This document shows, piece after piece, positions 4,248-64,000 of a stretch of DNA of 64,000 bases. The translations under genes were made by a program, and so were the position numbers. Under the pieces are notes generated by a model. It was given only the letters and a program-made list of their open reading frames with translations, searched no databases and had not been told where the DNA came from. The stretch comes from Escherichia phage EC128. Where the stretch lies: the sequence record ON210139.1; one strand, given 5' to 3'. Numbering within the stretch: position 1 is the first letter of the stretch; every line of letters begins with the position of its first letter.

Positions 4248-4256
4248 GAAGGTGAT

Positions 4257-8043: not shown

Positions 8044-8045
8044 TT

Positions 8046-18494: not shown

Positions 18495-18505
18495 AAATAA
18501 TAAAT

Positions 18506-18530
18506 ACCCTTATCTATTTAAGGTAAGGGT
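18506..18530 (+). promoter_or_regulatory. hairpin sequestering the gene 49 ribosome-binding site
   Basis: ACCCTTA...TAAGGGT 7-bp stem ends 5 nt before ATG 18536. Confidence 0.4.
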
Positions 18531-18535
18531 TTATT

Positions 18536-19009: not shown

Positions 19010-19543
19010 CAATTGAAAAAGAAATTGAAGGATTGATTCATAAAACTAATAAAGACCTTTTGAACGAGAATGCTAATAAAGATTCTCGTGTTTTTCCAAC
19101 TCAACGGGACCTTATGGCTGGTATTGTGTCTAAACACATTGCCAAAAATATGGTCCCGTCTTTTATTATGAAAGCGCATGAAAGCGGAATTATCCATTTC
19201 CATGATATTGATTATTCCCCTGCTCTTCCATTTACTAATTGCTGTTTAGTAGATTTAAAAGGAATGCTTGAGAACGGATTTAAGCTCGGTAATGCACAGA
19301 TTGAAACTCCTAAATCAATTGGCGTTGCTACTGCAATTATGGCACAAATTACTGCACAGGTTGCTTCCCATCAATATGGCGGAACGACTTTTGCGAATGT
19401 AGATAAAGTACTTTCTCCTTATGTTAAACGCACCTATGCAAAACATATTGAAGATGCAGAAAAATGGCAAATCGCCGATGCGTTGAATTATGCTCAATCT
19501 AAAACAGAAAAAGACGTATACGATGCATTCCAAGCTTATGAGT
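19006..19543 (+). CDS. nrdD: anaerobic ribonucleotide reductase NrdD, exon 1
   Basis: ends at U of AUGAGU, which pairs with intron guide GCUCAU; exons sum to 605 aa. Confidence 0.85.
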
Positions 19544-19747
19544 TAACGTAAGTCAAGCTCATGTAAAATCTGCCTAAAACGGGAAACTCTCACTGAGACA
19601 ATCCGTTGCTAAATCAGCGGTAGCTGTAAATGCCCAACGACTATCCCTGATGAATGTAAGGGAGTAGGGTCAAGCGACCCGAAACGGCAGACAACTCTTA
19701 GAGTTGAAGATATAGTCTGAACTGCATGGCGACATGCAGCTGTTTAT

Positions 19748-19771
19748 CCTCGTATAAATACGAATACGAGG
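19748..19771 (+). promoter_or_regulatory. late promoter inside an SD-sequestering hairpin
   Basis: CCTCGTA-TAAATACGAA-TACGAGG; TATAAATA 19753-19760; SD GAGG in 3' arm. Confidence 0.55.
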
Positions 19772-19778
19772 TGAAACG

Positions 19779-20555
19779 ATGAAATGGAAATTAAGAAAAA
19801 GCTTAAAAATTGACAATTCTGTAGCATTTACCTATATGGTAAGATTTCCTGATAAGTCTTTTTATATAGGTTTTAAAAAATTCAAAACTATATATGGTAA
19901 AGATACAAATTGGAAAGAATACAATTCGTCATCTAAGCTTGTTAAAGAAAAGCTTAAAGATTATAAAGCTAAGTGGATAATTCTTCAAGTTTTTGATTCT
20001 TATGAATCGGCCCTTAAACATGAAGAAATGCTTATTAGGAAACATTTTAATAACGAATTTATTCTTAATAAATCTATAGGTGGATATAAATTTAACAAAT
20101 ATCCGGATTCAGAAGAACATAAGCAAAAACTTAGTAATGCCCATAAAGGTAAAATCTTATCTTTAAAACATAAAGATAAGATACGAGAGAAATTGATTGA
20201 GCATTATAAAAATAATAGTAGAAGTGAAGCTCATGTTAAAAATAATATTGGTAGTAGAACGGCTAAAAAGACTGTTTCTATAGCTTTAAAATCCGGAAAT
20301 AAATTTAGAAGTTTTAAATCAGCTGCAAAATTTCTTAAATGCTCTGAAGAACAGGTTAGTAATCATCCAAATGTTATAGATATAAAAATAACAATTCATC
20401 CCGTCCCAGAATATGTTAGAATAAATGACAATATCTATAAATCATTTGTGGATGCTGCTAAAGATTTAAAACTCCACCCAAGTCGTATTAAAGATTTGTG
20501 CTTAGATGACAATTATCCAAATTACATTGTTTCATATAAACGGGTAGAGAAGTAG
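19779..20555 (+). CDS. I-TevII: intron-encoded homing endonuclease I-TevII
   Basis: 258-aa ORF inside the intron; divergent GIY-YIG N-terminus. Confidence 0.75.
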   Translation: MKWKLRKSLKIDNSVAFTYMVRFPDKSFYIGFKKFKTIYGKDTNWKEYNSSSKLVKEKLKDYKAKWIILQVFDSYESALKHEEMLIRKHFNNEFILNKSIGGYKFNKYPDSEEHKQKLSNAHKGKILSLKHKDKIREKLIEHYKNNSRSEAHVKNNIGSRTAKKTVSIALKSGNKFRSFKSAAKFLKCSEEQVSNHPNVIDIKITIHPVPEYVRINDNIYKSFVDAAKDLKLHPSRIKDLCLDDNYPNYIVSYKRVEK

Positions 20556-20576
20556 CGAACTCTACTGAACACATTG

Positions 20577-21856
20577 ATGAAGTGAACACGTTATTCAGTT
20601 CAAACGGACAAACGCCTTTTGTAACAATTACATTTGGTACGGGAACTGACTGGACTGAACGAATGATTCAGAAAGCAATTTTGAAAAATCGTATTAAAGG
20701 TCTTGGTCGTGATGGGATAACTCCTATTTTCCCTAAGCTTGTTATGTTCGTTGAAGAAGGTGTTAATCTTTATAAAGACGATCCGAACTATGATATTAAG
20801 CAGCTTGCTCTAGAGTGTGCAAGCAAAAGGATGTATCCTGATATTATTTCAGCTAAGAACAATAAAGCTATCACTGGTTCATCTGTTCCTGTTTCTCCAA
20901 TGGGTTGCCGTAGTTTCTTGAGCGTATGGAAAGATTCGACTGGTAATGAAATTCTTGATGGACGTAATAATCTTGGTGTTGTAACACTGAATCTTCCTCG
21001 CATCGCGTTAGATTCTTATATTGGAACACAGTTCAATGAACAGAAATTTGTTGAATTATTCAATGAACGAATGGATTTGTGTTTTGAAGCATTGATGTGT
21101 AGAATTAGTTCCTTAAAAGGAGTTAAAGCTACTGTTGCTCCTATTCTTTACCAAGAAGGTGCATTCGGGGTTCGTCTTAAACCTGATGACGATATAATTG
21201 AGTTATTTAAAAGCGGTAGAAGTTCAGTGTCCCTAGGATACATTGGTATTCACGAATTGAATATTCTTGTTGGTCGTGATATTGGACAAGAAATTTTAAC
21301 TAAAATGAATACTCATCTTAAACAATGGACTGAAAGAACTGGTTTTGCTTTTAGTTTGTATTCTACTCCTGCTGAAAACCTGTGCTATCGCTTCTGTAAA
21401 CTTGATACCGAAAAATATGGAAGTGTAAAAGATGTTACCGATAAAGGCTGGTACACTAACAGTTTCCACGTTTCGGTAGAAGAAAATATTACTCCATTTG
21501 AAAAGATTTCTCGCGAAGCCCCATATCATTTCATTGCGACAGGTGGTCACATTTCTTATGTTGAACTTCCTGATATGAAAAATAACTTAAAAGGTCTTGA
21601 GGCCGTATGGGATTATGCTGCACAACATTTAGATTATTTTGGTGTTAACATGCCGGTAGATAAATGTTTTACATGCGGAAGTACCCATGAAATGACTCCT
21701 ACTGAAAACGGATTTGTTTGTTCTATTTGTGGAGAAACTGATCCTAAAAAGATGAACACCATAAGAAGAACATGCGGATATCTTGGAACTCCTAGCGTTG
21801 TTCCATGGAATTTAGGTAAAATGAAAGAAATGGTAAAACGAGTAAAACATGCATAG
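20577..21856 (+). CDS. nrdD: anaerobic ribonucleotide reductase NrdD, exon 2
   Basis: C-terminal glycyl-radical RRTCGYLG and Zn ribbon CFTCG...CSICG. Confidence 0.85.
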
Positions 21857-22679
21857 GTATTATATAATTTATAAAATAACAAATATAATTAATTCAAAGG
21901 AATATATCGGTGCGCATAGCACCGATAACATAAATGACGGTTATATGGGGTCAGGAACATTGATTCGTGCCGCTTTATTAAAATATGGTAGAAAAAATTT
22001 TAATAAAGAAATTTTACATGTTTTTGATAATGAAAAACAAATGTATGATAAAGAAGCTGAACTTGTAACCGAAGAGTATTGTCTAAAAGAAAATACATAT
22101 AATATTAAACCTGGTGGAAAAGGTGGAACTGCCTATGAACAGACACTTGAACATCGCCGCAAAAATAGTTTAGCAAATAAAGGTAAAAAGAGAACAGAAG
22201 AAACTAAAATAGCTATTTCACGTGCTTTAAAGAAATATAAACGTACGCCAGAGCATCAAGCAAATTTAAATAAAGCCGTAAGCATAGCTATGAAGCGAAA
22301 AGATGTTAGAAGTAAATTAGCTGGAGAGCGGTCTGAGAAAGATAAATTATCTATATCAAACGGTGTTAAAAAATATTACAATTCTTTGAGTGAAGAAGAA
22401 CGCGAACTTCATCGCAAGCGAATTATTGAAGGTAAAAAGAATTCTCCCATGTCATTGGAATCTAGACAAAAGCTTTCAAAAGCTTTAAAAGGACTTCAAG
22501 TTGGTTCAAAAAATCCAATGTATGGAAAAATTTCTCCAACTAGCAAAACCGTTTCAGTTGACGGTATTAAATATGATTCAATTAAAAAGTGCTCAAATGC
22601 CATAAAAGTTTCTAGACATCTTATACTAAAACGCTGTAATTCTACTGATGAAGCTTGGAAAAATTGGATATTATTATGA
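21849..22679 (+). CDS. free-standing GIY-YIG-like homing endonuclease (possibly mobC by position)
   Basis: YYIIYKITN...KEYIGAH, NUMOD repeats, C-terminal H-T-H-like. Confidence 0.65.
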   Translation: MHRYYIIYKITNIINSKEYIGAHSTDNINDGYMGSGTLIRAALLKYGRKNFNKEILHVFDNEKQMYDKEAELVTEEYCLKENTYNIKPGGKGGTAYEQTLEHRRKNSLANKGKKRTEETKIAISRALKKYKRTPEHQANLNKAVSIAMKRKDVRSKLAGERSEKDKLSISNGVKKYYNSLSEEERELHRKRIIEGKKNSPMSLESRQKLSKALKGLQVGSKNPMYGKISPTSKTVSVDGIKYDSIKKCSNAIKVSRHLILKRCNSTDEAWKNWILL

Positions 22680-27460: not shown

Positions 27461-27484
27461 AAACCAAAACAAAGAGGATATTAA

Positions 27485-28687
27485 ATGAAAGTATGTATTT
27501 TTATGGCTCGAGGTCTTGAAGGTTGTGGTGTAACTAAATTTTCTCTTGAGCAACGTGATTGGTTTATTAAAAATGGTCATGAAGTAACTTTGGTTTATGC
27601 TAAAGATAAATCATTTACTCGTACAAGTTCTCATGACCACAAATCATTTTCAATTCCAGTTATTTTAGCTAAAGAATACGATAAAGCACTTAAGCTGGTA
27701 AATGATTGTGATATTCTAATTATTAATTCTGTTCCTGCTACTTCCGTTCAAGAAGCCACGATTAATAACTATAAAAAACTTTTAGATAATATTAAACCTT
27801 CTATTCGTGTTGTAGTTTATCAGCATGATCATTCTGTTCTTTCTTTGCGTCGAAATTTGGGATTAGAAGAAACTGTTCGTCGAGCTGATGTTATTTTTAG
27901 CCATTCTGATAATGGTGATTTTAATAAAGTTCTGATGAAAGAATGGTATCCAGAAACTGTTTCTCTGTTTGATGATATTGAAGAAGCACCAACAGTATAT
28001 AACTTTCAGCCTCCTATGGATATTGCGAAGGTTCGGTCAACTTATTGGAAAGATGTTTCTGAAATTAACATGAACATCAACCGTTGGATTGGTCGTACGA
28101 CTACATGGAAAGGTTTTTATCAGATGTTTGATTTTCATGAAAAATTCTTAAAACCTGCTGGTAAATCCACTGTAATGGAAGGTCTTGAACGTTCCCCTGC
28201 TTTTATTGCAATTAAGGAAAAAGGTATTCCGTATGAATATTATGGTAATCGTGAGATTGATAAAATGAATCTCACGCCGAATCAACCGGCACAAATCCTA
28301 GATTGTTATATTAATAGTGAAATGCTTGAACGAATGAGTAAATCTGGCTTTGGATATCAGTTGAGTAAACTTAACCAGAAATACTTACAACGCTCACTCG
28401 AATATACTCATCTTGAATTAGGTGCTTGCGGTACAATTCCTGTTTTCTGGAAATCAACGGGTGATAATTTAAAATTCCGTGTTGATAATACTCCTTTGAC
28501 CTCACATGATAGCGGTATCATTTGGTTTGATGAAAATGACATGGAATCAACATTCGAGCGTATTAAAGAATTGTCATCTGACCGAGCTCTTTATGACCGT
28601 GAGCGAGAAAAAGCATATGAATTTTTGTATCAGCACCAAGATTCAAGCTTCTGTTTTAAAGAACAGTTTGACATTATTACAAAATAA
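27485..28687 (+). CDS. a-gt: DNA alpha-glucosyltransferase
   Basis: 400 aa; N-terminus IFMARGLEGCGVTKF. Confidence 0.9.
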   Translation: MKVCIFMARGLEGCGVTKFSLEQRDWFIKNGHEVTLVYAKDKSFTRTSSHDHKSFSIPVILAKEYDKALKLVNDCDILIINSVPATSVQEATINNYKKLLDNIKPSIRVVVYQHDHSVLSLRRNLGLEETVRRADVIFSHSDNGDFNKVLMKEWYPETVSLFDDIEEAPTVYNFQPPMDIAKVRSTYWKDVSEINMNINRWIGRTTTWKGFYQMFDFHEKFLKPAGKSTVMEGLERSPAFIAIKEKGIPYEYYGNREIDKMNLTPNQPAQILDCYINSEMLERMSKSGFGYQLSKLNQKYLQRSLEYTHLELGACGTIPVFWKSTGDNLKFRVDNTPLTSHDSGIIWFDENDMESTFERIKELSSDRALYDREREKAYEFLYQHQDSSFCFKEQFDIITK

Positions 28688-35418: not shown

Positions 35419-38115
35419 ATGAAAGAATTTTATATCTCTATTGAAACAGTCGGAAATAACATCGTTGAACGTTATATTGATGAAAACGGAAAGGAACGTA
35501 CTCGTGAAGTAGAATATCTTCCGACTATGTTTAGGCATTGTAAGGAAGAGTCAAAGTACAAAGACATCTATGGTAAAAATTGCGCTCCTCAAAAATTTCC
35601 ATCAATGAAAGATGCTCGAGATTGGATGAAGCGAATGGAAGACATCGGTCTCGAAGCTCTCGGTATGAACGATTTTAAACTCGCTTATATCAGTGATACA
35701 TATGGTTCAGAAATTGTTTATGACCGAAAATTTGTTCGTGTAGCTAACTGTGACATTGAGGTTACTGGTGATAAATTTCCTGACCCAATGAAAGCTGAAT
35801 ATGAAATTGATGCTATCACTCATTATGATTCAATTGACGATCGTTTTTACGTCTTTGATTTGTTGAATTCAATGTACGGTTCAGTATCAAAATGGGATGC
35901 AAAGTTAGCTGCTAAGCTTGACTGTGAAGGTGGTGATGAAGTTCCTCAAGAAATTCTTGACCGAGTAATTTATATGCCATTTGATAATGAGCGTGATATG
36001 CTCATGGAATATATCAATCTTTGGGAACAGAAACGACCTGCTATTTTTACTGGTTGGAATATTGAGGGATTTGACGTTCCGTATATCATGAATCGCGTTA
36101 AAATGGTTCTCGGTGAACGCAGTATGAAACGTTTCTCTCCAATCGGTCGAGTAAAATCTAAACTAATTCAAAATGTGTACGGTAGCAAAGAAATTTATTC
36201 TATTGATGGCGTATCTATTCTTGATTATTTAGATTTGTATAAGAAATTCGCATTTACTAATTTGCCGTCATTCTCTTTGGAATCAGTTGCTCAACATGAA
36301 ACCAAAAAAGGTAAATTACCATACGACGGTCCTATTAATAAACTTCGTGAGACTAATCATCAACGATACATTAGTTATAACATCATTGACGTAGAATCAG
36401 TTCAAGCAATTGATAAAATTCGCGGGTTTATCGATCTAGTTTTAAGTATGTCTTATTACGCTAAAATGCCTTTTTCTGGTGTAATGAGTCCTATTAAAAC
36501 TTGGGATGCTATTATTTTTAACTCATTGAAAGGTGAACACAAGGTTATTCCTCAACAAGGTTCGCACGTTAAACAAAGTTTTCCGGGTGCATTTGTGTTT
36601 GAACCTAAGCCAATTGCTCGTCGATATATTATGAGTTTTGACTTGACGTCTCTGTATCCGAGTATTATTCGTCAGGTTAACATTAGTCCTGAGACTATTC
36701 GTGGGCAGTTTAAAGTTCATCCAATTCATGAATATATCGCAGGAACAGCTCCTAAACCGAGTGATGAATATTCTTGTTCTCCGAATGGATGGATGTATGA
36801 TAAGCATCAAGAAGGTATCATTCCAAAGGAAATCGCTAAAGTATTTTTCCAGCGTAAAGATTGGAAAAAGAAAATGTTCGCTGAAGAAATGAATGCCGAA
36901 GCTATTAAAAAGATTATTATGAAAGGCGCAGGGTCTTGTTCAACTAAACCAGAAGTTGAACGATATGTTAAGTTCAGTGATGATTTCTTAAATGAACTAT
37001 CGAATTATACTGAATCTGTTCTCAATAGTCTGATTGAGGAATGTGAAAAAGCAGCTACACTTGCTAATACAAATCAGCTGAACCGTAAAATTCTCATTAA
37101 CAGTCTTTATGGTGCTCTTGGTAATATTCATTTCCGTTACTATGATTTGCGAAATGCTACTGCTATCACAATTTTCGGCCAAGTTGGTATTCAGTGGATT
37201 GCTCGTAAAATTAATGAATATCTGAATAAAGTATGCGGAACTAATGATGAAGATTTCATCGCAGCAGGTGATACTGATTCGGTATATGTTTGCGTAGATA
37301 AAGTTATTGAAAAAGTTGGTCTTGACCGATTCAAAGAGCAGAACGATTTAGTTGAATTCATGAATCAGTTCGGTAAGAAAAAGATGGAACCTATGATTGA
37401 TGTTGCATATCGTGAGTTATGTGATTATATGAATAACCGCGAGCATCTGATGCATATGGACCGTGAAGCTATTTCTTGCCCTCCACTTGGTTCAAAGGGC
37501 GTTGGTGGATTTTGGAAAGCGAAAAAGCGTTATGCTCTGAACGTTTATGATATGGAAGATAAACGATTTGCTGAACCGCATCTAAAAATCATGGGTATGG
37601 AAACTCAACAGAGTTCAACACCAAAAGCAGTGCAAGAAGCTCTCGAAGAAAGTATTCGTCGTATTCTTCAGGAAGGTGAAGAGTCTGTCAAAGAATACTA
37701 CAAGAACTTCGAGAAAGAATATCGTCAACTTGACTATAAAGTTATTGCTGAAGTAAAAACTGCGAACGATATAGCAAAATATGATGATAAAGGTTGGCCA
37801 GGATTTAAATGTCCGTTCCATATTCGCGGTGTGCTAACTTATCGTCGAGCTGTTAGTGGTCTGGGTGTAGCTCCAATTTTGGATGGAAATAAAGTAATGG
37901 TTCTTCCATTGCGTGAAGGAAATCCATTTGGTGACAAGTGCATTGCTTGGCCGTCGGGCACAGAACTTCCAAAAGAAATTCGTTCTGATGTACTGTCTTG
38001 GATTGACTACTCAACTTTGTTCCAAAAATCGTTTGTTAAACCGCTTGCGGGTATGTGTGAATCGGCTGGTATGGACTATGAAGAAAAAGCTTCGTTAGAC
38101 TTCCTGTTTGGCTGA
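35419..38115 (+). CDS. 43: DNA polymerase gp43 (family B)
   Basis: 898 aa; exonuclease FDIE and polymerase YGDTDS motifs. Confidence 0.95.
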   Translation: MKEFYISIETVGNNIVERYIDENGKERTREVEYLPTMFRHCKEESKYKDIYGKNCAPQKFPSMKDARDWMKRMEDIGLEALGMNDFKLAYISDTYGSEIVYDRKFVRVANCDIEVTGDKFPDPMKAEYEIDAITHYDSIDDRFYVFDLLNSMYGSVSKWDAKLAAKLDCEGGDEVPQEILDRVIYMPFDNERDMLMEYINLWEQKRPAIFTGWNIEGFDVPYIMNRVKMVLGERSMKRFSPIGRVKSKLIQNVYGSKEIYSIDGVSILDYLDLYKKFAFTNLPSFSLESVAQHETKKGKLPYDGPINKLRETNHQRYISYNIIDVESVQAIDKIRGFIDLVLSMSYYAKMPFSGVMSPIKTWDAIIFNSLKGEHKVIPQQGSHVKQSFPGAFVFEPKPIARRYIMSFDLTSLYPSIIRQVNISPETIRGQFKVHPIHEYIAGTAPKPSDEYSCSPNGWMYDKHQEGIIPKEIAKVFFQRKDWKKKMFAEEMNAEAIKKIIMKGAGSCSTKPEVERYVKFSDDFLNELSNYTESVLNSLIEECEKAATLANTNQLNRKILINSLYGALGNIHFRYYDLRNATAITIFGQVGIQWIARKINEYLNKVCGTNDEDFIAAGDTDSVYVCVDKVIEKVGLDRFKEQNDLVEFMNQFGKKKMEPMIDVAYRELCDYMNNREHLMHMDREAISCPPLGSKGVGGFWKAKKRYALNVYDMEDKRFAEPHLKIMGMETQQSSTPKAVQEALEESIRRILQEGEESVKEYYKNFEKEYRQLDYKVIAEVKTANDIAKYDDKGWPGFKCPFHIRGVLTYRRAVSGLGVAPILDGNKVMVLPLREGNPFGDKCIAWPSGTELPKEIRSDVLSWIDYSTLFQKSFVKPLAGMCESAGMDYEEKASLDFLFG

Positions 38116-38128
38116 TAGAATAAATCTA

Positions 38129-38149
38129 GGGACCTCCAGGTCCCTTTTT
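38129..38149 (+). terminator. rho-independent terminator
   Basis: GGGACC-TCCA-GGTCCC then TTTTT. Confidence 0.65.
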
Positions 38150-38206
38150 CATACAAGTAATATAAATCTATACTTAGGAAAAATAGATGATTCTAGGTCC
38201 TGTAAA

Positions 38207-38310
38207 TTCATTAAAAATTTTTTCACAAAACTGTTTACAAGACTGTTCTTCCATGGTACTATACAACTATCAACTACTGATACAGATTTGGAGAATAAAA
38301 TGAAAATTGT
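38207..38310 (+). repeat. PeSL-like module, copy B
   Basis: GTTTAC 38233-38238; 38255-38306 identical to 9591-9642. Confidence 0.6.
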
Positions 38311-38536
38311 TATGGGGTGCTTAGCAGTTTGTTTAGTTGCATTAGCAGCAGTTCCATTTGTTAGTGTTGAAAATGATACTCAACCTGTGATTGAATCTAG
38401 CACCGTTATTCACACTAATGGTAAAATATCAGTTAAAATTGATGATAATCTTCATGTGAATACTAATGGAACGCTGGGTGTTCAATTAGGTAATATCTGT
38501 GTAAGCACTACTGGAGTAATTACTACTTGTATTTGA
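38300..38536 (+). CDS. small secreted/membrane protein
   Basis: 78 aa from ATG 38300, hydrophobic N-terminus. Confidence 0.5.
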   Translation: MKIVMGCLAVCLVALAAVPFVSVENDTQPVIESSTVIHTNGKISVKIDDNLHVNTNGTLGVQLGNICVSTTGVITTCI

Positions 38537-38546
38537 GGAAATTATT

Positions 38547-38927
38547 ATGAAAATCGCTATTTTGGTTATTGCATTAGGTCTTACTGGTTGTGTAGCTCAA
38601 GGACCGGTAGTAAATCAGTCTGATGTAGGAAAAATTGTAAACTGTTCAAGCAAATTTTATAATCCTAATGTCAAGTGTTATAAAGAAGCTCCAAAACAGA
38701 CAGTAGAACAAATGCAGGCGAATTTTGACGAGGCTATTCGTCCAGATGAATCTGCTCAAGCATATCGTAATTCGGATGTAATTACACGCGAAGAAAAAAT
38801 TGAAAACTACTGTGCAGAACTTTGGGCAAATTGGGCTAATAATTACCAATGGCGTACAGGTAAAAATGCTCCGATGGAGTATGTAGTGAATTCTTATAAT
38901 TCATGTGTAAAAAATTTGACTAAGTGA
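38547..38927 (+). CDS. putative lipoprotein
   Basis: signal peptide with lipobox LTGC. Confidence 0.55.
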   Translation: MKIAILVIALGLTGCVAQGPVVNQSDVGKIVNCSSKFYNPNVKCYKEAPKQTVEQMQANFDEAIRPDESAQAYRNSDVITREEKIENYCAELWANWANNYQWRTGKNAPMEYVVNSYNSCVKNLTK

Positions 38928-39339: not shown

Positions 39340-40080
39340 ATGATTAACGATTATATGACAGTTGAAGAAATCCGTCTTGATTTGGGTCTTGCATTAAAGG
39401 AAAAAGATTTCGTAATTGATAAAACCGGGGTTAAAACTATTGAAATTATTGGTGCATCATTTGTAGCAGATGAACCTTTTATTTTTGGCGCTCTTAATGA
39501 TGAATACATTCAGCGTGAACTTGAATGGTATAAATCTAAGAGCTTGTTCGTTAAAGATATTCCAGGTGAAACACCGAAGATTTGGCAGCAGGTAGCATCT
39601 TCTAAAGGCGAAATTAACTCGAATTATGGTTGGGCTATCTGGTCAGAAGATAACTATGCTCAGTATGATATGTGTTTAGCTGAACTTGGTCAAAATCCTG
39701 ATTCTCGACGTGGTATCATGATTTATACTCGTCCATCCATGCAATTTGACTACAATAAAGATGGTATGTCAGATTTCATGTGTACGAATACAGTACAGTA
39801 CCTGATTCGTGATAAGAAAGTCAATGCGGTTGTTAGCATGAGAAGCAATGATTGCTGGGCAGGCTATCGTAATGATTATGCTTGGCAAAAATACGTACTA
39901 GATAAATTAGTATCTGATTTGAATGCAGGCGACCCATCGCGGCAATATAAAGCAGGTTCTATTATATGGAACGTTGGAAGTCTTCATGTGTACGAAAATC
40001 AGTTTTATTTAGTTGACCATTGGTGGAACACCGGTGAGACTCATATTGCTAAAAAGGATTATACTGGAAAATGGAAGTAA
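39340..40080 (+). CDS. 42: dCMP hydroxymethylase gp42
   Basis: 246 aa, thymidylate-synthase-like. Confidence 0.9.
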   Translation: MINDYMTVEEIRLDLGLALKEKDFVIDKTGVKTIEIIGASFVADEPFIFGALNDEYIQRELEWYKSKSLFVKDIPGETPKIWQQVASSKGEINSNYGWAIWSEDNYAQYDMCLAELGQNPDSRRGIMIYTRPSMQFDYNKDGMSDFMCTNTVQYLIRDKKVNAVVSMRSNDCWAGYRNDYAWQKYVLDKLVSDLNAGDPSRQYKAGSIIWNVGSLHVYENQFYLVDHWWNTGETHIAKKDYTGKWK

Positions 40081-40712
40081 ATGTGCCACATGTTTATAAG
40101 TATAAACATCCTAAAACTAAAAAGTGGTATATAGGAAGTCATGATGGTCACAACCCGAATTATGACGGTTCGGGTGTAGTTTGGCAACATGCTAAAAAGA
40201 AATATGGAATAAAATCCTTTAATAAAGAAATATTATATGAAGGACCAATGTTTAGACAGGTTGAAGAAATTATTTTAACTTGTTTAGATGCTGCTAATTG
40301 TCCGGATTCATATAATTTAAAGAATGAAGCATGGGGAGGAAGTTTTCCAGGCAAATTAAATGGAATGTACGGTAAAAAACTATCTCCAGAAGAAAGATAT
40401 AAGTGCGGAAATGCCTTTCGTGGAATCAAGCGTCCTGATCATTCTAAAAGAATGAAAGGCGAAGGTAATCCAATGTATGGTAAAAATGAGCAGGCATATG
40501 GAATTATAAATCGAGCAAAGGAAAATTCTGGTAAAACTTATGAAGAAATTTTTGGCGCAGAAAAAGCTAAAATAATTAAAGAAACGATGTCTAAAAATCG
40601 TAAAGGAAAACCTCATAATTTGATAGAAAAAATATGTCCGCATTGCGGACTAAAAGGACGTGGGCCAAATATGACAAGATACCATTTTGACAAATGTAAG
40701 GCACTTAAATGA
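40071..40712 (+). CDS. free-standing GIY-YIG-like homing endonuclease (possibly segA)
   Basis: KKWYIGSH...YDGSG, NUMOD-like repeats, C-terminal CPHCG zinc motif. Confidence 0.6.
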   Translation: MEVNVPHVYKYKHPKTKKWYIGSHDGHNPNYDGSGVVWQHAKKKYGIKSFNKEILYEGPMFRQVEEIILTCLDAANCPDSYNLKNEAWGGSFPGKLNGMYGKKLSPEERYKCGNAFRGIKRPDHSKRMKGEGNPMYGKNEQAYGIINRAKENSGKTYEEIFGAEKAKIIKETMSKNRKGKPHNLIEKICPHCGLKGRGPNMTRYHFDKCKALK

Positions 40713-41551
40713 TTCAATTCGTAATTCCAAGCTATCAACGCGTAGGGGCAGTTTCTGCCCTTGATATGTTTCCGACTGATTATGAACCACATATTGTAGT
40801 GCGTGAACACGAAGAAAAAGCTTATTATGATGCTTATGGGTCTAAAGCTAAAATTGTAACTATTCCTGATGATGTTAATGGAATTGCCGGTACTCGTAAA
40901 GCAATTACTGATATGTATGCAGGTCAACGAATCTGGATGATTGATGATGATACTACTATTCGTATGAGTTCAATACGAAAGAGAGACGATAAACGGCGCG
41001 TAGATAAAATTAATCAATTAACTCGTGAACAGTTCTATGAATTAATTCAATACGTTGAGGATGCTATGGATTGCGGGTATTATCACGGTCATGCTCGTCT
41101 ACCAATTTTTAAAATTACTTCATCTTGGGGTAATTATCGTGAAAACTCATATGGATTCACGAATACATGGTATGACCTCGGAAAACTTACGACAGAACAA
41201 ATTGGGTATGGAAAAATTGATTTATGTGAAGATATGTACGCATTTCTCAATTTAATTAATCAAGGTTATCCGCATTTGGCCTTGTTCAAATATCTAGTTG
41301 TATCTGGAAAATCACACGCTCCCGGCGGGTGCAGTTCAATTCGTAGTAATTCTAAACATAATAGAGCGCTTGAACAAATCAATAGAGAGTTTCCAGAGCA
41401 AGCTTGTTGGAAAACTTCTAATATTGAAAAACGAAAATCGTTGGGTGAAGAAGACGAGCCATTAAAGGTTCTTCGCATGTGTGTTTCTCGTAAAGAAAAA
41501 TCAGAAGCATTTCATAAGTTTAATGCTATTCATCCAATAGCAGTTGATTAA
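40709..41551 (+). CDS. 280-aa protein at the beta-gt locus; possibly a glucosyltransferase
   Basis: position between 42 and uvsX; shorter than the 351 aa I recall for T4 beta-gt. Confidence 0.45.
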   Translation: MIQFVIPSYQRVGAVSALDMFPTDYEPHIVVREHEEKAYYDAYGSKAKIVTIPDDVNGIAGTRKAITDMYAGQRIWMIDDDTTIRMSSIRKRDDKRRVDKINQLTREQFYELIQYVEDAMDCGYYHGHARLPIFKITSSWGNYRENSYGFTNTWYDLGKLTTEQIGYGKIDLCEDMYAFLNLINQGYPHLALFKYLVVSGKSHAPGGCSSIRSNSKHNRALEQINREFPEQACWKTSNIEKRKSLGEEDEPLKVLRMCVSRKEKSEAFHKFNAIHPIAVD

Positions 41552-41628
41552 TGCCTAAATTTATTGTGTTATAATTACTCTATCTTTAACCAGTGAGGAA
41601 AATATAATGATGCCTATGGAAAAAATGA

Positions 41629-42810
41629 ATGTCTATTGCAGATTTAAAATCCCGTTTGATTAAAGCTTCCACTTCTAAAATGACTGCTGAACTGACTACA
41701 TCTAAATTCTTTAATGAAAAGGATGTAATTCGTACAAAAATTCCAATGCTTAATATTGCTATTTCTGGTGCGATTGATGGTGGTATGCAGTCTGGTTTAA
41801 CTATTTTCGCAGGGCCTTCTAAACACTTTAAATCAAATATGTCTTTGACTATGGTTGCGGCGTATTTGAACAAATATCCTGACGCGGTTTGTCTATTCTA
41901 TGATAGCGAATTTGGTATTACTCCAGCTTATTTGCGATCCATGGGAGTTGACCCGGAACGAGTAATTCATACGCCGATTCAGTCAGTTGAACAACTGAAA
42001 ATTGATATGGTGAACCAGCTTGAAGCTATTGAGCGTGGTGAAAAGGTTATTGTATTCATCGACTCAATCGGTAATATGGCTTCTAAGAAAGAAACGGAAG
42101 ATGCCTTGAATGAAAAATCTGTGGCAGATATGACTCGTGCTAAATCACTGAAGTCATTATTCCGTATTGTTACTCCTTATTTTAGCATTAAAAATATTCC
42201 ATGTGTTGCGGTTAACCATACAATTGAAACAATTGAAATGTTTAGTAAAACCGTGATGACAGGTGGTACAGGCGTAATGTATTCGGCTGATACTGTATTC
42301 ATTATCGGTAAGCGTCAGATTAAAGATGGTTCTGATCTTCAGGGGTATCAATTTGTTCTAAATGTAGAAAAATCTCGTACCGTTAAAGAAAAAAGTAAAT
42401 TCTTTATTGATGTTAAATTTGACGGTGGTATCGATCCTTATTCTGGATTGTTAGATATGGCTCTAGAATTAGGATTTGTAGTAAAACCTAAAAATGGCTG
42501 GTATGCTCGTGAATTTCTTGACGAAGAAACCGGCGAGATGATTCGCGAAGAAAAATCTTGGCGTGCAAAAGATACCAACTGCACTACATTCTGGGGTCCT
42601 TTATTTAAGCATCAACCATTCCGAGATGCTATTAAACGTGCTTATCAGTTAGGTGCTATTGATAGTAATGAAATTGTTGAAGCTGAAGTTGATGAATTGA
42701 TTAACTCAAAGGTTGAAAAATTTAAATCTCCAGAAAGTAAAAGTAAATCAGCTGCTGATTTAGAAACTGACCTCGAACAGTTAAGTGATATGGAAGAATT
42801 TAATGAATAA
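41629..42810 (+). CDS. uvsX: recombinase UvsX (RecA-like)
   Basis: 393 aa, RecA fold, acidic C-terminal tail. Confidence 0.95.
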   Translation: MSIADLKSRLIKASTSKMTAELTTSKFFNEKDVIRTKIPMLNIAISGAIDGGMQSGLTIFAGPSKHFKSNMSLTMVAAYLNKYPDAVCLFYDSEFGITPAYLRSMGVDPERVIHTPIQSVEQLKIDMVNQLEAIERGEKVIVFIDSIGNMASKKETEDALNEKSVADMTRAKSLKSLFRIVTPYFSIKNIPCVAVNHTIETIEMFSKTVMTGGTGVMYSADTVFIIGKRQIKDGSDLQGYQFVLNVEKSRTVKEKSKFFIDVKFDGGIDPYSGLLDMALELGFVVKPKNGWYAREFLDEETGEMIREEKSWRAKDTNCTTFWGPLFKHQPFRDAIKRAYQLGAIDSNEIVEAEVDELINSKVEKFKSPESKSKSAADLETDLEQLSDMEEFNE

Positions 42811-47458: not shown

Positions 47459-47493
47459 ATGTCCTCCTTTAAATTAATATTTATCATAAATTT

Positions 47494-47523
47494 GTTTACT
47501 TTCTCAGCTTGTTATGGTATTAT
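47494..47523 (+). promoter_or_regulatory. early promoter
   Basis: GTTTAC 47494-47499, TGGTATTAT -10. Confidence 0.55.
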
Positions 47524-47548
47524 AAAATAAATTGCTGAGGATGATATA

Positions 47549-48888
<1,340 letters not shown>

Positions 48889-57575: not shown

Positions 57576-58079
57576 ATGAAAATTTATCGTGTTGAATCAT
57601 CTTTTAGTATTCTTAATTGTGAAGATGCTATAACAATACGTCGAAATCTTTGTGTTCAAATAACGCCATACAGGAGTATAATAGATTCATGGAGCGAAGA
57701 GTGGTTATTACACGTAGGTTATGATAGACCTAATTTTATGCATCATAGTAATGATAACAAAAGAATTCCTCTTCCGCGCGAAGACAAATTATTAGTTAAA
57801 AATGCTAATATAGCAATTAATACTAACTTTGAGAAAGAAGAATATGTAGGCGTAGATCATTATATTCCTGGATGGTTTATAGCTCTTTATCATTTTGCTT
57901 TCGCTAGTGAGTATGATATGATGAGATGGTTCACGCGAGAAGAGCGGGAAGAATTATCTTCTAAAGGATTTTATCTCGCTGTATACGAAGTTCCTGAAGA
58001 TGAAGTTATCATTGGTGGGCACCAAGTAATGTTCCGCAAATCGCATGCTGAACTCGTAGATTTTATTGAAATGAGATAA
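57576..58079 (+). CDS. hypothetical protein
   Basis: SD GAGGATAATAAA then ATG 57576. Confidence 0.55.
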   Translation: MKIYRVESSFSILNCEDAITIRRNLCVQITPYRSIIDSWSEEWLLHVGYDRPNFMHHSNDNKRIPLPREDKLLVKNANIAINTNFEKEEYVGVDHYIPGWFIALYHFAFASEYDMMRWFTREEREELSSKGFYLAVYEVPEDEVIIGGHQVMFRKSHAELVDFIEMR

Positions 58080-58081
58080 TT

Positions 58082-58624
58082 ATGAAATTTAATTATAATC
58101 CTGAATACATACCAAATCCGGTAGCTAAACCGTTTGCTATGGATATAGCAAGCATGTACGGCACTCTTGTTAAACCATTAGAAATTAAGGAAACATTTAT
58201 GACTGCTCGGACCATCGAAATTGGCAAAACCTACAAACTGGTTGAAACTGAAATTAAAACTACTGAACTAAATTTGGGTTATAAAGCATTGACTAATGCT
58301 TTTGGTGAAGGCGAGTTTGTGGTTAAAAGCTTTTCAAAAAGTAACTGGTATGATAAGAATAAAGCTTACGTGATTCGAGTACACCGTTTAGATAATGATG
58401 AAGTAATTAAAACTATAGTCTTTGAAGCAGAGCTTATCCTCTTCAAAGAAGTTGATCCTACTGACCTTTTGGCTCATGCAGTAGCTATTAAGACCCCATT
58501 TATTTCGGTCTGTGGTTGGGTAACAGACCAATGGATTGAAGATGGTGTTGAACTTCTGAACGTTGTTCATGCGGGTGATTTTAGCGTAGTACCTCGTAGT
58601 GCAGTGGTAGCTATTTTGAATTAA
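58082..58624 (+). CDS. hypothetical protein (paralog of 58701 ORF)
   Basis: shared C-terminal motif CGWVTDQWIEDGVELLNVV. Confidence 0.55.
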   Translation: MKFNYNPEYIPNPVAKPFAMDIASMYGTLVKPLEIKETFMTARTIEIGKTYKLVETEIKTTELNLGYKALTNAFGEGEFVVKSFSKSNWYDKNKAYVIRVHRLDNDEVIKTIVFEAELILFKEVDPTDLLAHAVAIKTPFISVCGWVTDQWIEDGVELLNVVHAGDFSVVPRSAVVAILN

Positions 58625-60175: not shown

Positions 60176-60547
60176 ATGTTTAAAATCGGTAAGAAATATC
60201 GTATTCGCGAAGGCGAAGAAAAGAAATATCTAATGTCTGCTATTTATAGGAATGGTTCTATTAATGCTGTAATATCTACAAGCGAATTTATCGTTGAAGA
60301 TATGAAAGGTCATAATGTTACGATGATTAGTACAGCGTCTGGAAATAATGGAAAAATTCTTCACAGTATGCAGAGTAATGTTCTAATTTATGCTGAAGAA
60401 TTTGACTTCTTCGAAGAAGTTCCCGAAAATTTTGATTTTGGATGCACTATCACTATGAAATCTGGTGACCCTCTTTCCTTTACAGTTAAAGATGAAAGAA
60501 GTCGCTTGAGAGTTATTAGTCTCCTTCAAGCCATTAAATTTAAGTGA
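60176..60547 (+). CDS. hypothetical protein
   Basis: start at ATG 60176. Confidence 0.5.
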   Translation: MFKIGKKYRIREGEEKKYLMSAIYRNGSINAVISTSEFIVEDMKGHNVTMISTASGNNGKILHSMQSNVLIYAEEFDFFEEVPENFDFGCTITMKSGDPLSFTVKDERSRLRVISLLQAIKFK

Positions 60548-60813
60548 AAATTATGAAATATGTTAATCGTTCTATCGCAGCATTAGTATTAGCAGTATCT
60601 TTAGTAGGATGTACTGATGCTGATAATGCAACTAAAATTTTATCATCAAGTGGTTTTACTAATATTGAAATCACTGGATATAACTGGTTCGGTTGCTCTG
60701 AAAATGATTTCCAACATACTGGATTTCGTGCTATTGGACCTACTGGGCAGAAAGTAGAAGGAACAGTATGTTCTGGTCTATTCTTCAAGGATTCGACTAT
60801 TCGTTTTAAATAA
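60544..60813 (+). CDS. putative lipoprotein
   Basis: signal peptide with lipobox LVGC. Confidence 0.5.
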   Translation: MKIMKYVNRSIAALVLAVSLVGCTDADNATKILSSSGFTNIEITGYNWFGCSENDFQHTGFRAIGPTGQKVEGTVCSGLFFKDSTIRFK

Positions 60814-60855: not shown

Positions 60856-60882
60856 ATTCCCGAAACCAAACGAGGATAAGTG

Positions 60883-62433
60883 ATGATTAAGAATGAAATT
60901 AAAATTCTGAGCGATATTGAACATATCAAAAAGCGTAGCGGCATGTACATTGGTTCTTCTGCTAATGAAATGCATGAGCGCTTTCTGTTTGGTAAATGGG
61001 AAAGTGTTCAGTATGTACCTGGTCTTGTTAAGCTTATTGATGAAATTATCGATAACTCAGTAGATGAAGGTATTCGTACTAAGTTTAAATTCGCAAATAA
61101 AATTAATGTTACTATTAAAAACAATCAAGTAACAGTTGAAGATAACGGTCGCGGTATTCCACAAGCGATGGTTAAAACACCTACCGGTGAAGAAATTCCT
61201 GGTCCTGTTGCTGCATGGACTATTCCAAAAGCAGGTGGTAACTTCGGTGATGATAAAGAACGCGTCACTGGCGGTATGAATGGTGTTGGTTCTAGTTTGA
61301 CAAACATTTTTTCTGTGATGTTTGTTGGTGAAACTGGCGACGGTCAAAATAATATTGTAGTTCGTTGTTCAAATGGCATGGAAAATAAATCATGGGAAGA
61401 TATTCCTGGAAAATGGAAAGGAACTCGTGTTACTTTCATTCCTGATTTTATGTCATTTGAAACTAATGAATTGTCCCAAGTTTATCTTGACATTACACTA
61501 GATCGTCTCCAGACACTTGCAGTAGTTTATCCTGATATTCAATTTACCTTTAATGGTAAAAAGGTTCAGGGCAATTTTAAGAAATATGCACGACAGTATG
61601 ATGAGCATGCTATCGTTCAAGAACAAGAAAACTGTTCTATTGCAGTTGGTCGTTCACCGGATGGTTTTCGTCAATTAACTTATGTGAATAACATTCACAC
61701 TAAGAATGGTGGCCATCACATTGACTGTGTTATGGATGATATTTGTGAAGACCTTATTCCACAAATCAAACGTAAGTTCAAAATTGATGTGACTAAAGCG
61801 CGTGTCAAAGAATGTTTGACTATCGTTATGTTTGTCCGTGATATGAAAAACATGCGATTTGATTCTCAAACTAAAGAGCGTTTGACTTCTCCATTTGGCG
61901 AAATTCGTAGTCATATTCAGCTTGATGCTAAAAAGATTTCACGCGCTATTCTAAATAATGAAGCAATTCTAATGCCGATTATCGAAGCTGCTTTGGCTCG
62001 TAAATTGGCGGCAGAAAAAGCAGCAGAAACTAAAGCAGCTAAAAAGGCTTCTAAAGCTAAGGTTCATAAACATATCAAAGCGAACCTTTGCGGTAAAGAT
62101 GCTGACACTACTCTTTTCTTGACTGAGGGTGATTCTGCTATCGGATATCTTATTGATGTTCGTGATAAAGAACTTCACGGTGGTTATCCATTGCGCGGTA
62201 AAGTTCTCAACAGTTGGGGTATGTCTTATGCAGATATGCTTAAAAACAAAGAACTATTTGATATTTGCGCAATCACTGGTCTAGTTCTCGGTGAAAAGGC
62301 GTTTGAAGAAAAAGAAGATGGCGAGTGGTTTACTTTCGAACTAAATGGCGATACAATTATCGCAAATGAAAATGATGAAGTACAGATTAATGGTAAATGG
62401 ATAACAGTAGGTGAATTACGAAAAAATCTATAA
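60883..62433 (+). CDS. 39: DNA topoisomerase II large subunit, ATPase part (gp39)
   Basis: 516 aa, GyrB-type GHKL ATPase and TOPRIM motifs. Confidence 0.9.
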   Translation: MIKNEIKILSDIEHIKKRSGMYIGSSANEMHERFLFGKWESVQYVPGLVKLIDEIIDNSVDEGIRTKFKFANKINVTIKNNQVTVEDNGRGIPQAMVKTPTGEEIPGPVAAWTIPKAGGNFGDDKERVTGGMNGVGSSLTNIFSVMFVGETGDGQNNIVVRCSNGMENKSWEDIPGKWKGTRVTFIPDFMSFETNELSQVYLDITLDRLQTLAVVYPDIQFTFNGKKVQGNFKKYARQYDEHAIVQEQENCSIAVGRSPDGFRQLTYVNNIHTKNGGHHIDCVMDDICEDLIPQIKRKFKIDVTKARVKECLTIVMFVRDMKNMRFDSQTKERLTSPFGEIRSHIQLDAKKISRAILNNEAILMPIIEAALARKLAAEKAAETKAAKKASKAKVHKHIKANLCGKDADTTLFLTEGDSAIGYLIDVRDKELHGGYPLRGKVLNSWGMSYADMLKNKELFDICAITGLVLGEKAFEEKEDGEWFTFELNGDTIIANENDEVQINGKWITVGELRKNL

Positions 62434-63229
62434 TGACTTAATAGTGCGGGGTAAAACCCGCGTTTCTAAATTTAAGGGTGAAATTCATCATATCCTTCCA
62501 AGATCAATGGGAGGTTCTGATGATAAAGAAAATTTGGTGAAACTGACTTTTCGTGAACATTTTTTAGCACATTTTCTACTATATAAAATTCATCGTAATC
62601 GTGAAATGGCATATGCGATGAATAGAATGTTAAACACTGAAAAATATTTACGTTCTAGTAAATTATATGAAATTGCTAGAATTTACCATCAAAGAGCAGT
62701 ATCTGAATGGTCAAAAAACTTTATGAAAGATAAAGTTTTAATGAGAAGTATTAAATCGGGTAAATGCGCCTTATTAATTAAAGGATCATTTAACCCAAAG
62801 GAATGGTGCGGTGTTAATAAAGGTGTTAAGCTTCCTGGAATTAAAGGCATGACATGCTTTAAAAATGAAAAAGGCGAAGTTTTTCGTCTTCATGTTAATG
62901 ATCCACGCATTAAAGCTGAAAAATTAGTTGGTATTGGAAATACTGTTGCTGCTACTGCAAAAGCAGCTGAACTTGAAAAAGCGAAACCATGGTATAATAA
63001 ATCAGCGACAAATCCAGAGGCTGTAAAATTAATACCAAATTTATATGAATGGTACGTCACGAAATATGACCCCGATCATTATAAACGAACGGGAGTTGCT
63101 AAATGGAAATCAGTTAATAATATAACTGTGAATTCAAAATTATTCGGCCGAGCATTTAATGAATTTAAACGCGGTTGGATTCCTGATGAAAAGTTCTATG
63201 AGGTGTATAATGAAATTTGTAAAAATTGA
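62411..63229 (+). CDS. mobA: HNH homing endonuclease MobA
   Basis: HNH motif EIHHILPRSMGGSDDKENLVKLTFREH; overlaps ends of 39 and 60; start GTG 62411 or 62444. Confidence 0.65.
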   Translation: MNYEKIYNDLIVRGKTRVSKFKGEIHHILPRSMGGSDDKENLVKLTFREHFLAHFLLYKIHRNREMAYAMNRMLNTEKYLRSSKLYEIARIYHQRAVSEWSKNFMKDKVLMRSIKSGKCALLIKGSFNPKEWCGVNKGVKLPGIKGMTCFKNEKGEVFRLHVNDPRIKAEKLVGIGNTVAATAKAAELEKAKPWYNKSATNPEAVKLIPNLYEWYVTKYDPDHYKRTGVAKWKSVNNITVNSKLFGRAFNEFKRGWIPDEKFYEVYNEICKN

Positions 63230-63347
63230 TTCTTCTAGCGTTGATATGAAAAAATATAAATTGCAGAACAATGTTCGTCGTTCTATTAAATCCTCTTCAA
63301 TGAACTATGCGAATGTCGCTATTATGACAGACGCAGATCACGATGGA
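63210..63347 (+). CDS. 60: topoisomerase II subunit gp60, codons 1-46 up to take-off GGA
   Basis: 46 codons ending ...DADHDG then TAG. Confidence 0.85.
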
Positions 63348-63397
63348 TAGCCTTCGGGCTATCTATAGAAATACCTCATAATTAAGAGATTATTGGA
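63348..63397 (+). promoter_or_regulatory. 50-nt translational bypass (hop) element
   Basis: take-off GGA 63345-63347, TAG, hairpin with UUCG loop, landing GGA 63395-63397; downstream frame continues. Confidence 0.85.
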
Positions 63398-63742
63398 TTA
63401 GGTTCTATTTATCCTTCTCTGCTCGGATTTTTTAGTAATTGGCCAGAATTGTTTGAGCAAGGACGAATTCGCTTTGTCAAAACTCCTGTAATCATCGCTC
63501 AGGTCGGTAAAAAACAAGAATGGTTTTATACAGTCGCTGAATATGAGAGTGCTAAAGATGCTCTACCTAAACATAGCATCCGTTATATTAAGGGACTTGG
63601 CTCTTTGGAAAAATCTGAATATCGTGAGATGATTCAAAACCCAGTATATGATGTTGTTAAACTTCCTGAGAACTGGAAAGAGCTTTTTGAAATGCTCATG
63701 GGAGATAATGCTGACCTTCGCAAAGAATGGATGAGCCAGTAG
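63398..63742 (+). CDS. 60: topoisomerase II subunit gp60, codons 47-160
   Basis: resumes at UUA after landing GGA; no in-frame ATG; total 160 aa. Confidence 0.85.
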   Translation, partial: LGSIYPSLLGFFSNWPELFEQGRIRFVKTPVIIAQVGKKQEWFYTVAEYESAKDALPKHSIRYIKGLGSLEKSEYREMIQNPVYDVVKLPENWKELFEMLMGDNADLRKEWMSQ

Positions 63743-63771
63743 TTTACTTTACCACAAGGATGTGGTATAAT
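63742..63771 (+). promoter_or_regulatory. early promoter
   Basis: GTTTACTTTACCACAAGGATGTGGTATAAT, near-identical to 14673. Confidence 0.6.
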
Positions 63772-63796
63772 TAATTGGGCAAATGAGGATATTGGA

Positions 63797-64000
63797 ATGA
63801 AATCATATAAAGTAAATTTAGAACTTTTTGATAAAGCAGTTCATCGAGAATATAGAATCATTCAACGCTTTTTCGATATGGGAGAAGCCGAAGAATTTAA
63901 AAACCGCTTTAAAGATATTAGAGATAAAATTCAATCCGACACCGCAACTAAAGATGAACTACTAGAAGTTGCTGAAGTTATTAAGCGTAATATGAATTAA
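63797..64000 (+). CDS. hypothetical protein (rIIA.1 position)
   Basis: 67-aa ORF; stop coincides with window end. Confidence 0.5.
   Translation: MKSYKVNLELFDKAVHREYRIIQRFFDMGEAEEFKNRFKDIRDKIQSDTATKDELLEVAEVIKRNMN

Follow-up and report, generated by a model that had tools for sequence, protein, structure and literature searches.

A locus corresponding to the programmed translational bypass of phage T4 gene 60 in Escherichia phage EC128

The stretch of Escherichia phage EC128 DNA analysed here (the window) is 64,000 nucleotides long, and all coordinates given below are positions within it. The locus of interest lies on the plus strand and comprises gene 39, the homing endonuclease gene mobA and gene 60, whose features are collected in Table 1. 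The product of gene 39 carries ATPase and transducer domains, and its last ~44 codons (62301-62433) form a C-terminal extension that is encoded by a mobile cassette. The mobA ORF overlaps gene 39 by 23 nucleotides and gene 60 by 20 nucleotides, and it is out of frame with both. Its Pfam match to the HNH family is weak (20.1 bits against a gathering cut-off of 21.4), and the full-length ORF differs from the annotated mobA of phage T4T at 3 of 819 bases. This intact reading frame of 272 amino acids resembles those of T4T and the newer T4 assemblies, whereas mobA is fragmented in the T4 reference record NC_000866.

There are 46 codons in gene 60 between the ATG at 63210 and the point where the reading frame is interrupted. 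They encode MKFVKIDSSSVDMKKYKLQNNVRRSIKSSSMNYANVAIMTDADHDG and close with GAT GGA as codons 45 and 46, after which an in-frame TAG is encountered. The 50 nucleotides that follow the first GGA are closed in all three frames, with TAG codons at 63348 and 63366 (frame 0), a TAA at 63379 (frame 1) and another TAA at 63383 (the landing frame). The take-off and landing codons are both GGA, lie 50 nucleotides apart and are readable by the same peptidyl-tRNA. Immediately after the landing codon, the UUA at 63398 opens a run of 114 sense codons that ends at the TAG at 63740-63742, and the joined product of the two coding segments is 160 amino acids long. The second segment encodes the rest of the TOPRIM domain and the C-terminal associated domain.

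An earlier note on this DNA had described a frame of 46 codons that reaches GGA and then TAG, a second GGA exactly 50 nucleotides further on, and a 114-codon frame that continues to 63742 to give 160 amino acids in total. Sequence reading and translation reproduce all of these statements to the base. The accompanying statement that the second frame contains no in-frame ATG holds for its first 77 codons and fails beyond them, where ATGs are found at 63629, 63692, 63698 and 63731 (codons 78, 99, 101 and 112 of the segment). The earliest start-like codon in this frame is a TTG at 63449, and there is no Shine-Dalgarno sequence accompanied by a start codon near the 5' end of the second segment.

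Table 1. Features of the gene 39-mobA-gene 60 locus in window coordinates
Feature	Position	Strand	Basis and remarks
Gene 39, N-terminal part of topoisomerase II large subunit	60883..62433	+	Pfam HATPase_c and DNA_gyraseB; collinear with T4 gene 39
MobA mobile cassette, 1106 nt	62301..63406	+	blastn against the uninterrupted RB32 gene
mobA, ORF for a 272-aa HNH-family homing endonuclease	62411..63229	+	ORF list; same coordinates as annotated mobA of T4T and BF15
Shine-Dalgarno sequence GAGG of gene 60	63200..63203	+	read from sequence; 6-nt spacer to ATG; invariant in the Pm5461/SEA1 alignment
Gene 60 codons 1-46, first coding segment	63210..63347	+	translation; ATG at 63210-63212; same sequence as in T4 and PDB 5NP6 chain C
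Nascent-peptide signal, codons 14-30 (KKYKLQNNVRRSIKSSS)	63249..63299	+	identical to T4; acts in the ribosomal exit tunnel according to the literature
Predicted 5' stem-loop upstream of the take-off hairpin	63308..63335	+	MFE and centroid fold of 63285-63470; sequence identical to T4; function from the literature
Take-off stem-loop, 10 bp, UUCG tetraloop	63343..63366	+	folds; take-off GGA and UAG lie within the 5' arm
Take-off codon GGA (Gly46)	63345..63347	+	sequence, translation and T4 comparison
UAG stop codon, in the A site at take-off	63348..63350	+	sequence and translation; 6 of 7 clade representatives have TAG after this codon position
50-nt non-coding gap	63348..63397	+	closed in all three frames; coincides with the misc_feature of T4 records
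Shine-Dalgarno-like GAG, 6 nt 5' of the landing codon	63386..63388	+	sequence; spacer AUUAUU; role from the literature
Landing codon GGA	63395..63397	+	sequence and T4 comparison; sole GGA within the gap
Gene 60 codons 47-160 and stop, second coding segment	63398..63742	+	translation; Pfam TOPRIM_C; identical to T4 gp60 and 8YO3
Predicted structure 3' of the landing site, candidate 'forward slippage barrier'	63407..63468	+	fold of 63285-63470; identical to T4; role from the literature

The bare arrangement of a codon, a stop, the same codon 20-100 nucleotides further on and at least 100 open codons occurs at 61 sites on the plus strand of the window, compared with 0.7 in shuffled sequences. 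This pattern is common because the genes are densely packed on one strand, and with such counts we dropped it as evidence. The gene 60 site nevertheless stands above chance because no frame stays open through the gap, because protein homology continues across the junction, and because the site is identical to the experimentally studied element of phage T4.

The take-off hairpin has the sequence AUGGAUAGCC-UUCG-GGCUAUCUAU. A hairpin with a UUCG loop had been noticed before at this place, and it is real, but its stem of 10 pairs is longer than had been written. Within a 65-nucleotide context the hairpin has a predicted folding energy of -17.5 kcal/mol with a z-score of -2.75 relative to dinucleotide shuffles. 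The overall z-score for the fold of 63285-63470, from which the two flanking structures in Table 1 are predicted, is -2.31. Outside the T4 clade, the 5' and 3' stem-loops are described as poorly conserved (bioRxiv 10.1101/2022.08.31.505936). The take-off hairpin is not terminator-like because no T-run follows it, and a promoter/terminator scan does not call a terminator at this position. On the strength of that scan, we rejected the reading of the hairpin as an intergenic terminator between two genes. A scan of the whole window at Rfam gathering thresholds gave no family at the bypass site and returned only the group I intron at 19508-19739. Rfam lacks a family for the bypass element, and therefore there is no independent match to an RNA model.

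There are five phages, namely T4, T4T, RB55, RB59 and BF15, whose genomes match positions 62400-64000 over the full length with 99.6% identity in a megablast search of phage genomes. Alignment of the 533-nucleotide gene 60 with its T4 counterpart (NC_000866.4, 2458-2990), which the earlier note had put forward as a check, reveals only two differences (T/C at 63553 and C/T at 63721). Both are synonymous and both are located downstream of the gap. No difference from T4 exists in the 50-nucleotide gap, the hairpin, the GAG, the nascent peptide of 46 residues or any of the coding sequence ahead of the gap, and the joined protein of 160 amino acids is 100% identical to T4 gp60. Moreover, in the T4 and T4T records gene 60 is entered as a joined CDS in two pieces, together with a misc_feature, labelled 'non-coding translational bypass region in mRNA', that corresponds exactly to 63348-63397 in the window. 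The suggestion that this is the classic T4 gene 60 hop is borne out by these observations.

Thus, the window and T4 have in common the GGA/GGA codon pair, the UAG, the UUCG take-off hairpin, the GAG located 6 nucleotides before the landing codon and the length of the gap, and in both genomes the element is flanked by gene 39/mobA on one side and rIIA.1 on the other. The genome that surrounds gene 60 in the window is that of a mosaic T4 relative and not of T4 itself, with mostly ~93-98% identity in aligned segments. We conclude that the locus is almost certainly the programmed translational bypass of phage T4 gene 60, here in the genome of a phage that is closely related to T4 and mosaic.

The protein product can be followed across the junction in several structures and homologues, where the identities of the matched structure entries are taken from PMC11461880. 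Residues 1-46 of gp60 match chain C of PDB entry 5NP6, which is the nascent peptide in a ribosome that has stalled at take-off. In the cryo-EM structure of T4 gp39-gp60 (8YO3), residues 517-676 correspond to the complete gp60 of 160 amino acids with 100% identity. The stretch across the bypass junction of the joined product is IMTDADHDGLGSIYPSLLGFFSNWPELFEQGR, and the peptide that spans the G46-L47 junction is DADHDGLGSIYPSLLGFF. This junction, at which MTDADHDG is followed by LGSIYPSLLG, aligns without gaps to the T6 entry 8YLU and to RB32 gp39. The uninterrupted T6 large subunit in 8YLU reads AIMTDADHDGLGSIYPSLLG unbroken through the junction. Eukaryotic topoisomerase II, gyrase B and ParE give weaker matches that likewise run unbroken through residues ~25-158, and Pfam places TOPRIM_C in the distal part of gp60. 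The hop is thus located within the DxDxDG motif, a conserved element of the TOPRIM domain. The conserved protein is restored only by the exact G46-L47 junction.

Residues of the nascent peptide with a role in bypass include KKYK, Y16, Q19, V22 and R24 (bioRxiv 10.1101/2022.08.31.505936, PMC5009743). The whole set of residues implicated in the literature (KKYK, Y16, Q19, V22, R24, Y33, M39, T40 and H44) is present in EC128 because the peptide is identical to that of T4. Among these, Y16 and Q19 are shared by every one of the seven clade representatives considered below.

The origin of the gap can be examined by comparison with phage RB32, whose '60plus39' gene of 605 amino acids is uninterrupted. 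By blastn, homology to RB32 is restricted to 60880-62300 and 63407-64000. Likewise, protein homology to the uninterrupted RB32 gp39 stops at residue 473-474, and DNA homology stops at 62300. These limits indicate that 1106 nucleotides (62301-63406) replace 64 nucleotides of the ancestral gene. The replaced region contains the ~44-amino-acid C-terminal extension of gp39, mobA, the N-terminal extension of gp60, the 50-nucleotide gap and 9 further nucleotides. The published MobA element is 1097-1106 nucleotides long, is accompanied by a 64-nucleotide deletion in the worked example, and has 9 extra nucleotides in its E. coli clade (bioRxiv 10.1101/2022.08.31.505936). MobA elements are recognised as inserts of ~1.1 kb in place of ~55-75 nucleotides of the uninterrupted gene, and the cassette in the window is such an insert.

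Of the 500 phage records with a match, about 50 extend across the gap. The others match the downstream part only and carry the uninterrupted gene, as exemplified by T2, T6, RB32 and RB10. In terms of DNA, the gap forms the 3' end of a mobA cassette whose insertion divided a topoisomerase gene, single in the ancestor, into genes 39 and 60. According to later literature that cites Bonocora et al. 2011 (pmid 21930924, PMC3182709), the gap protects the carrier genome from cleavage by MobA.

There are 73 phage records that match the 46-amino-acid N-terminal segment by tblastn, of which 41 have at least 95% identity and 32 fall below 60%. Our comparison set consists of the window (equivalent to T4) and one representative per divergent group, which makes seven clade representatives. 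The take-off and landing codons are GGA and GGA across a gap of 50 nucleotides in the window and T4, GGG and GGA across 51 nucleotides in Proteus phage Pm5461, and GGU and GGC across 48 nucleotides in Salmonella phage SEA1, where the endonuclease gene has been lost. They are GAU and GAC across 43 nucleotides in Acinetobacter phage fHyAci03, GAC and GAC across only 17 nucleotides in Aeromonas phage AS-gz, and GGU and GGU across 52 nucleotides in Shewanella phage Thanatos-1, whose hairpin has a UUAG loop. In Acinetobacter phage Stupor the codons are GGU and GGC, and the take-off Gly codon is followed by a sense codon instead of a stop, which has been identified as the rare Arg codon AGG (bioRxiv 10.1101/2022.08.31.505936).

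The measured gaps of 17-52 nucleotides cover all three frame offsets, yet the codon pair is always readable by one tRNA, as a tRNA re-pairing mechanism predicts. The cassettes of Pm5461, S16/SEA1, fHyAci03, Stupor, AS-gz and Thanatos-1 share their insertion point in the TOPRIM DxDxDG motif with the window. They resemble it further in their one-tRNA codon pairs, in the usual presence of UAG after the take-off codon, in the CC-UUCG-GG hairpin and in Y16 and Q19. Unlike the window, they have other codon pairs and gaps that range over 17-52 nucleotides, and identity in the N-terminal extension is only 52-59%. The GAG before the landing codon is also kept in Pm5461, SEA1 and fHyAci03.

In a five-clade alignment, the take-off hairpin is 100% paired and 4 of its 10 pairs exhibit compensatory changes on both sides. 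The observed covariation values are reached by at most 4 of 500 shuffles, and all slid registers fall to 20-42% pairing. Although five sequences are a small sample, we consider this result to be clear. The divergent cassettes, their codon pairs and the compensatory changes in the hairpin have already been published by Manning & Atkins (bioRxiv 10.1101/2022.08.31.505936). We also scanned IMG/VR viral contigs with GGNTAGCCTTCGGGCTA, which returned 100 stretches. Only that of Pm5461 has the D.D.DG take-off context, and the other matches are unrelated CC-UUCG-GG hairpins that were not considered further.

Perhaps gene 60 is simply broken, either as a pseudogene or as two independent genes that produce a 46-amino-acid peptide and a separately initiated C-terminal protein, although we find this very unlikely. 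Two separate CDSs are indeed annotated in the records of BF15, Pm5461, SEA1, Stupor, AS-gz and Thanatos-1, which also confirms a previous warning that the site is easy to misannotate, and the TTG at 63449 could open an ORF of 97 amino acids. However, no Shine-Dalgarno sequence is located ahead of this TTG, and a protein begun there would be missing 17 conserved residues of the TOPRIM domain (LGSIYPSLLGFFSNWPE), which are aligned in the uninterrupted homologues. In addition, the arrangement with its matched codons is kept across seven clades, and the gap is identical to that of T4, for which the literature describes a single bypass product. At least 41 phage genomes, recorded independently, contain the same 50 nucleotides with an identity of 95% or higher, which leaves virtually no chance that the interruption is a sequencing or assembly artefact in the window.

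Stops in all three frames inside the gap of the window rule out simple readthrough or a +/-1 shift, and homologues that lack the interruption show no additional residues at the junction. Thus, it is exceedingly improbable that the two frames are connected by readthrough of the stop codon or by conventional frameshifting of the +/-1 or +2 type, even though readthrough is formally possible in Pm5461, where the 51-nucleotide gap is in frame and contains a single TAG. Readthrough across the gap is also negligible according to the literature. Splicing, wherein the 50 nucleotides would be an intron or intron remnant whose removal makes the mature mRNA collinear with the protein, is to be considered because T4-type phages carry self-splicing group I introns, such as that at 19508-19739 in the window. 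We regard it as extremely unlikely, since 50 nucleotides are far too few for a catalytic core and there is no Rfam intron match at 63348-63397. The original 1988 work reportedly found the 50 nucleotides to be present in the mRNA. Furthermore, in vitro translation of unspliced gene 60 mRNA is described in the literature as reproducing bypassing.

For the programmed bypass that we favour, we infer both the ribosomal mechanism and the single protein product in EC128 from T4 experiments on the identical sequence (PMC5462505, PMC6551183, PMC11194080, PMC5009743, bioRxiv 10.1101/2022.08.31.505936). Ribosomes would start at the ATG at 63210 and translate 46 codons, during which the nascent peptide (the KKYK...RR...SSS region) would contact the exit tunnel and slow the ribosome. 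With peptidyl-tRNA-Gly on the GGA at 63345-63347 in the P site and the UAG in the A site, the anticodon would unpair and the tRNA would be retained in the ribosome, and RF1 is expected to be no effective competitor at the UAG during take-off. The apical part of the UUCG hairpin would then form in the A site, where EF-G may drive a pseudo-translocation, and mRNA structures that refold behind the ribosome would favour forward movement. The ribosome would slide across the 50 nucleotides until the tRNA re-pairs at the GGA at 63395-63397, probably aided by anti-Shine-Dalgarno pairing with the GAG located 6 nucleotides upstream. Decoding would resume at the UUA at 63398 to yield one topoisomerase II subunit, gp60, of 160 amino acids.

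In T4, nearly half of the ribosomes reach the far side of the gap (bioRxiv 10.1101/2022.08.31.505936), and when unspliced gene 60 mRNA is translated in vitro, the stop peptide seen at 10 degrees C is converted to the bypass product at 37 degrees C. Given this partial efficiency and temperature dependence, one possibility is that the bypass acts as a regulatory valve that sets the stoichiometry of gp60 to gp39 in response to temperature or the state of translation. The released 46-amino-acid peptide might instead have its own function. We consider such roles to be unlikely.

The bypass element is already thoroughly known and is not a discovery in EC128. Knowledge of bypassing in gene 60 dates from 1988, genetics, kinetics and cryo-EM have been used to dissect it, and its relatives in other phages are catalogued. 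It is one of very few cases in which ribosomes skip part of an mRNA, and the recoding site could be recognised from the raw sequence by the author of the earlier note. The practical value of the present observation is for annotation. Gene 60 should be recorded as one joined CDS (63210..63347, 63398..63742) in which the gap is flagged, and not as two ORFs or a pseudogene.

Gene 60 has some features in common with programmed frameshifting, as in the -1 event of dnaX and the +1 event of prfB, wherein a slow A-site codon and re-pairing of the peptidyl-tRNA are also involved (PMC5009743). Stimulators located in the mRNA or the nascent peptide are common to both processes (PMC5009743). However, frameshifting re-pairs the tRNA on an overlapping codon 1-2 nucleotides away, whereas in gene 60 re-pairing occurs 50 nucleotides downstream and the frames between are closed. 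The 'byp' elements described in the literature for mitochondria of the yeast Magnusiomyces capitatus resemble gene 60 in that inserts of 27-55 nucleotides are skipped between matched codons to give one protein. They differ in that their sequence is unrelated and that there are 81 inserts, which have spread in the manner of GC-cluster elements. In addition, the codon that follows take-off in 'byp' elements is an unassigned sense codon, whereas in gene 60 it is a stop codon.

Judged from its sequence, the source of the window is a mosaic relative of T4 and not T4 itself. The full window (1-64000) corresponds to about T4 2200-64400 read in reverse complement, with mostly 93-98% identity in the aligned blocks. 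Stretches that lack a T4 counterpart occur in both the first half (3169-3477, 3693-4257, 6797-7375, 7534-8496, 10583-11317, 16051-16586 and 21792-22676) and the second half (40072-41641, 47485-48022, 58054-58512 and 60178-60551).

Divergence from T4 is not uniform along positions 60900-64000. There are 42 differences in 1400 nt of gene 39 (60900-62299), or about 3.0%, whereas the mobA cassette, the homing-endonuclease insert between genes 39 and 60 (62301-63406), diverges by only ~0.45% and the region on its 3' side (63407-64000) by ~0.7%. This uneven pattern fits a recent exchange in which the cassette and its 3' flank would have been shared with a T4-like donor. The mobA gene itself (62411-63229, + strand) is intact and encodes 272 amino acids, as it does in T4T and in phage BF15. 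In contrast, the T4 reference NC_000866.4 differs from the window by ~11 single-base indels in the mobA ORF, and the NC_000866 annotation carries a 'defective' mobA fragment and a separate ORF 60.1.

A stretch (17885-21792) that is collinear with T4 47506-43599 without gaps contains the split nrdD gene, together with I-TevII, which the nrdD intron encodes. A scan of the whole window located a group I intron within this stretch. Between nrdD and nrdG, where T4 carries the HNH endonuclease mobC, the window has a different ORF of 276 amino acids with a GIY-YIG-like N-terminus (YIIYKITN...YIGAHS). This site seems to have exchanged one homing endonuclease for another. Elsewhere, at 27469-27494, the window lacks ~860 nt of T4 sequence, among them the gene for the HNH homing endonuclease MobB (mobB, T4 37885-38679), and the a-gt and a-gt.2 regions that flank this sequence in T4 are connected there by ~24 nt. 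Two ORFs are extra relative to T4, and neither has a match in Pfam. The longer of the two begins with a GIY-YIG-like motif (YFTIYKTE...YYYGRH).

The T4 beta-glucosyltransferase and segA region is likewise replaced by two other ORFs, of 213 and 280 amino acids, the former having no match in Pfam. This replacement suggests that DNA glucosylation in the phage follows a pattern unlike that of T4.

Features located in the window
Feature	Position	Strand	Characteristics
239-aa ORF	10601-11320	+	extra relative to T4, at T4 ~54.3 kb
Group I catalytic intron	19508-19739	+	Rfam RF00028, 98 bits, full model
276-aa ORF	21849-22679	+	NUMOD3 and I-TevI-type DNA-binding motifs
213-aa ORF	within 40071-41551	+	GIY-YIG-like N-terminus
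280-aa ORF	within 40071-41551	+	TET-associated glycosyltransferase family, PF20691, 1e-09
186-aa ORF	47549-48109	+	extra relative to T4, between dam and gene 61
Predicted sigma-70-type promoter	63743-63771	+	TTTACT, 17 nt, TG-TATAAT; 10/12, good match

Among the public records compared, only those of T4, T4T, HY01 and fHyAci03 mention the translational bypass of gene 60. The records of BF15, Pm5461, SEA1, Stupor, AS-gz and Thanatos-1 give no joined product; in them the bypassed gene is entered as a pair of separate CDSs or labelled as hypothetical proteins. In the Aeromonas phage AS-gz (392-560) the gap was counted as 17 nt (GAC TAG CGGGGTTAATC GAC), whereas the Aeromonas gap has been given as 'just 20 nt' (Manning & Atkins, bioRxiv 10.1101/2022.08.31.505936). 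This discrepancy probably reflects a different counting convention or the use of a different phage.

The predicted promoter is located directly 3' of the gene 60 stop codon and upstream of rIIA.1 (63797-64000).
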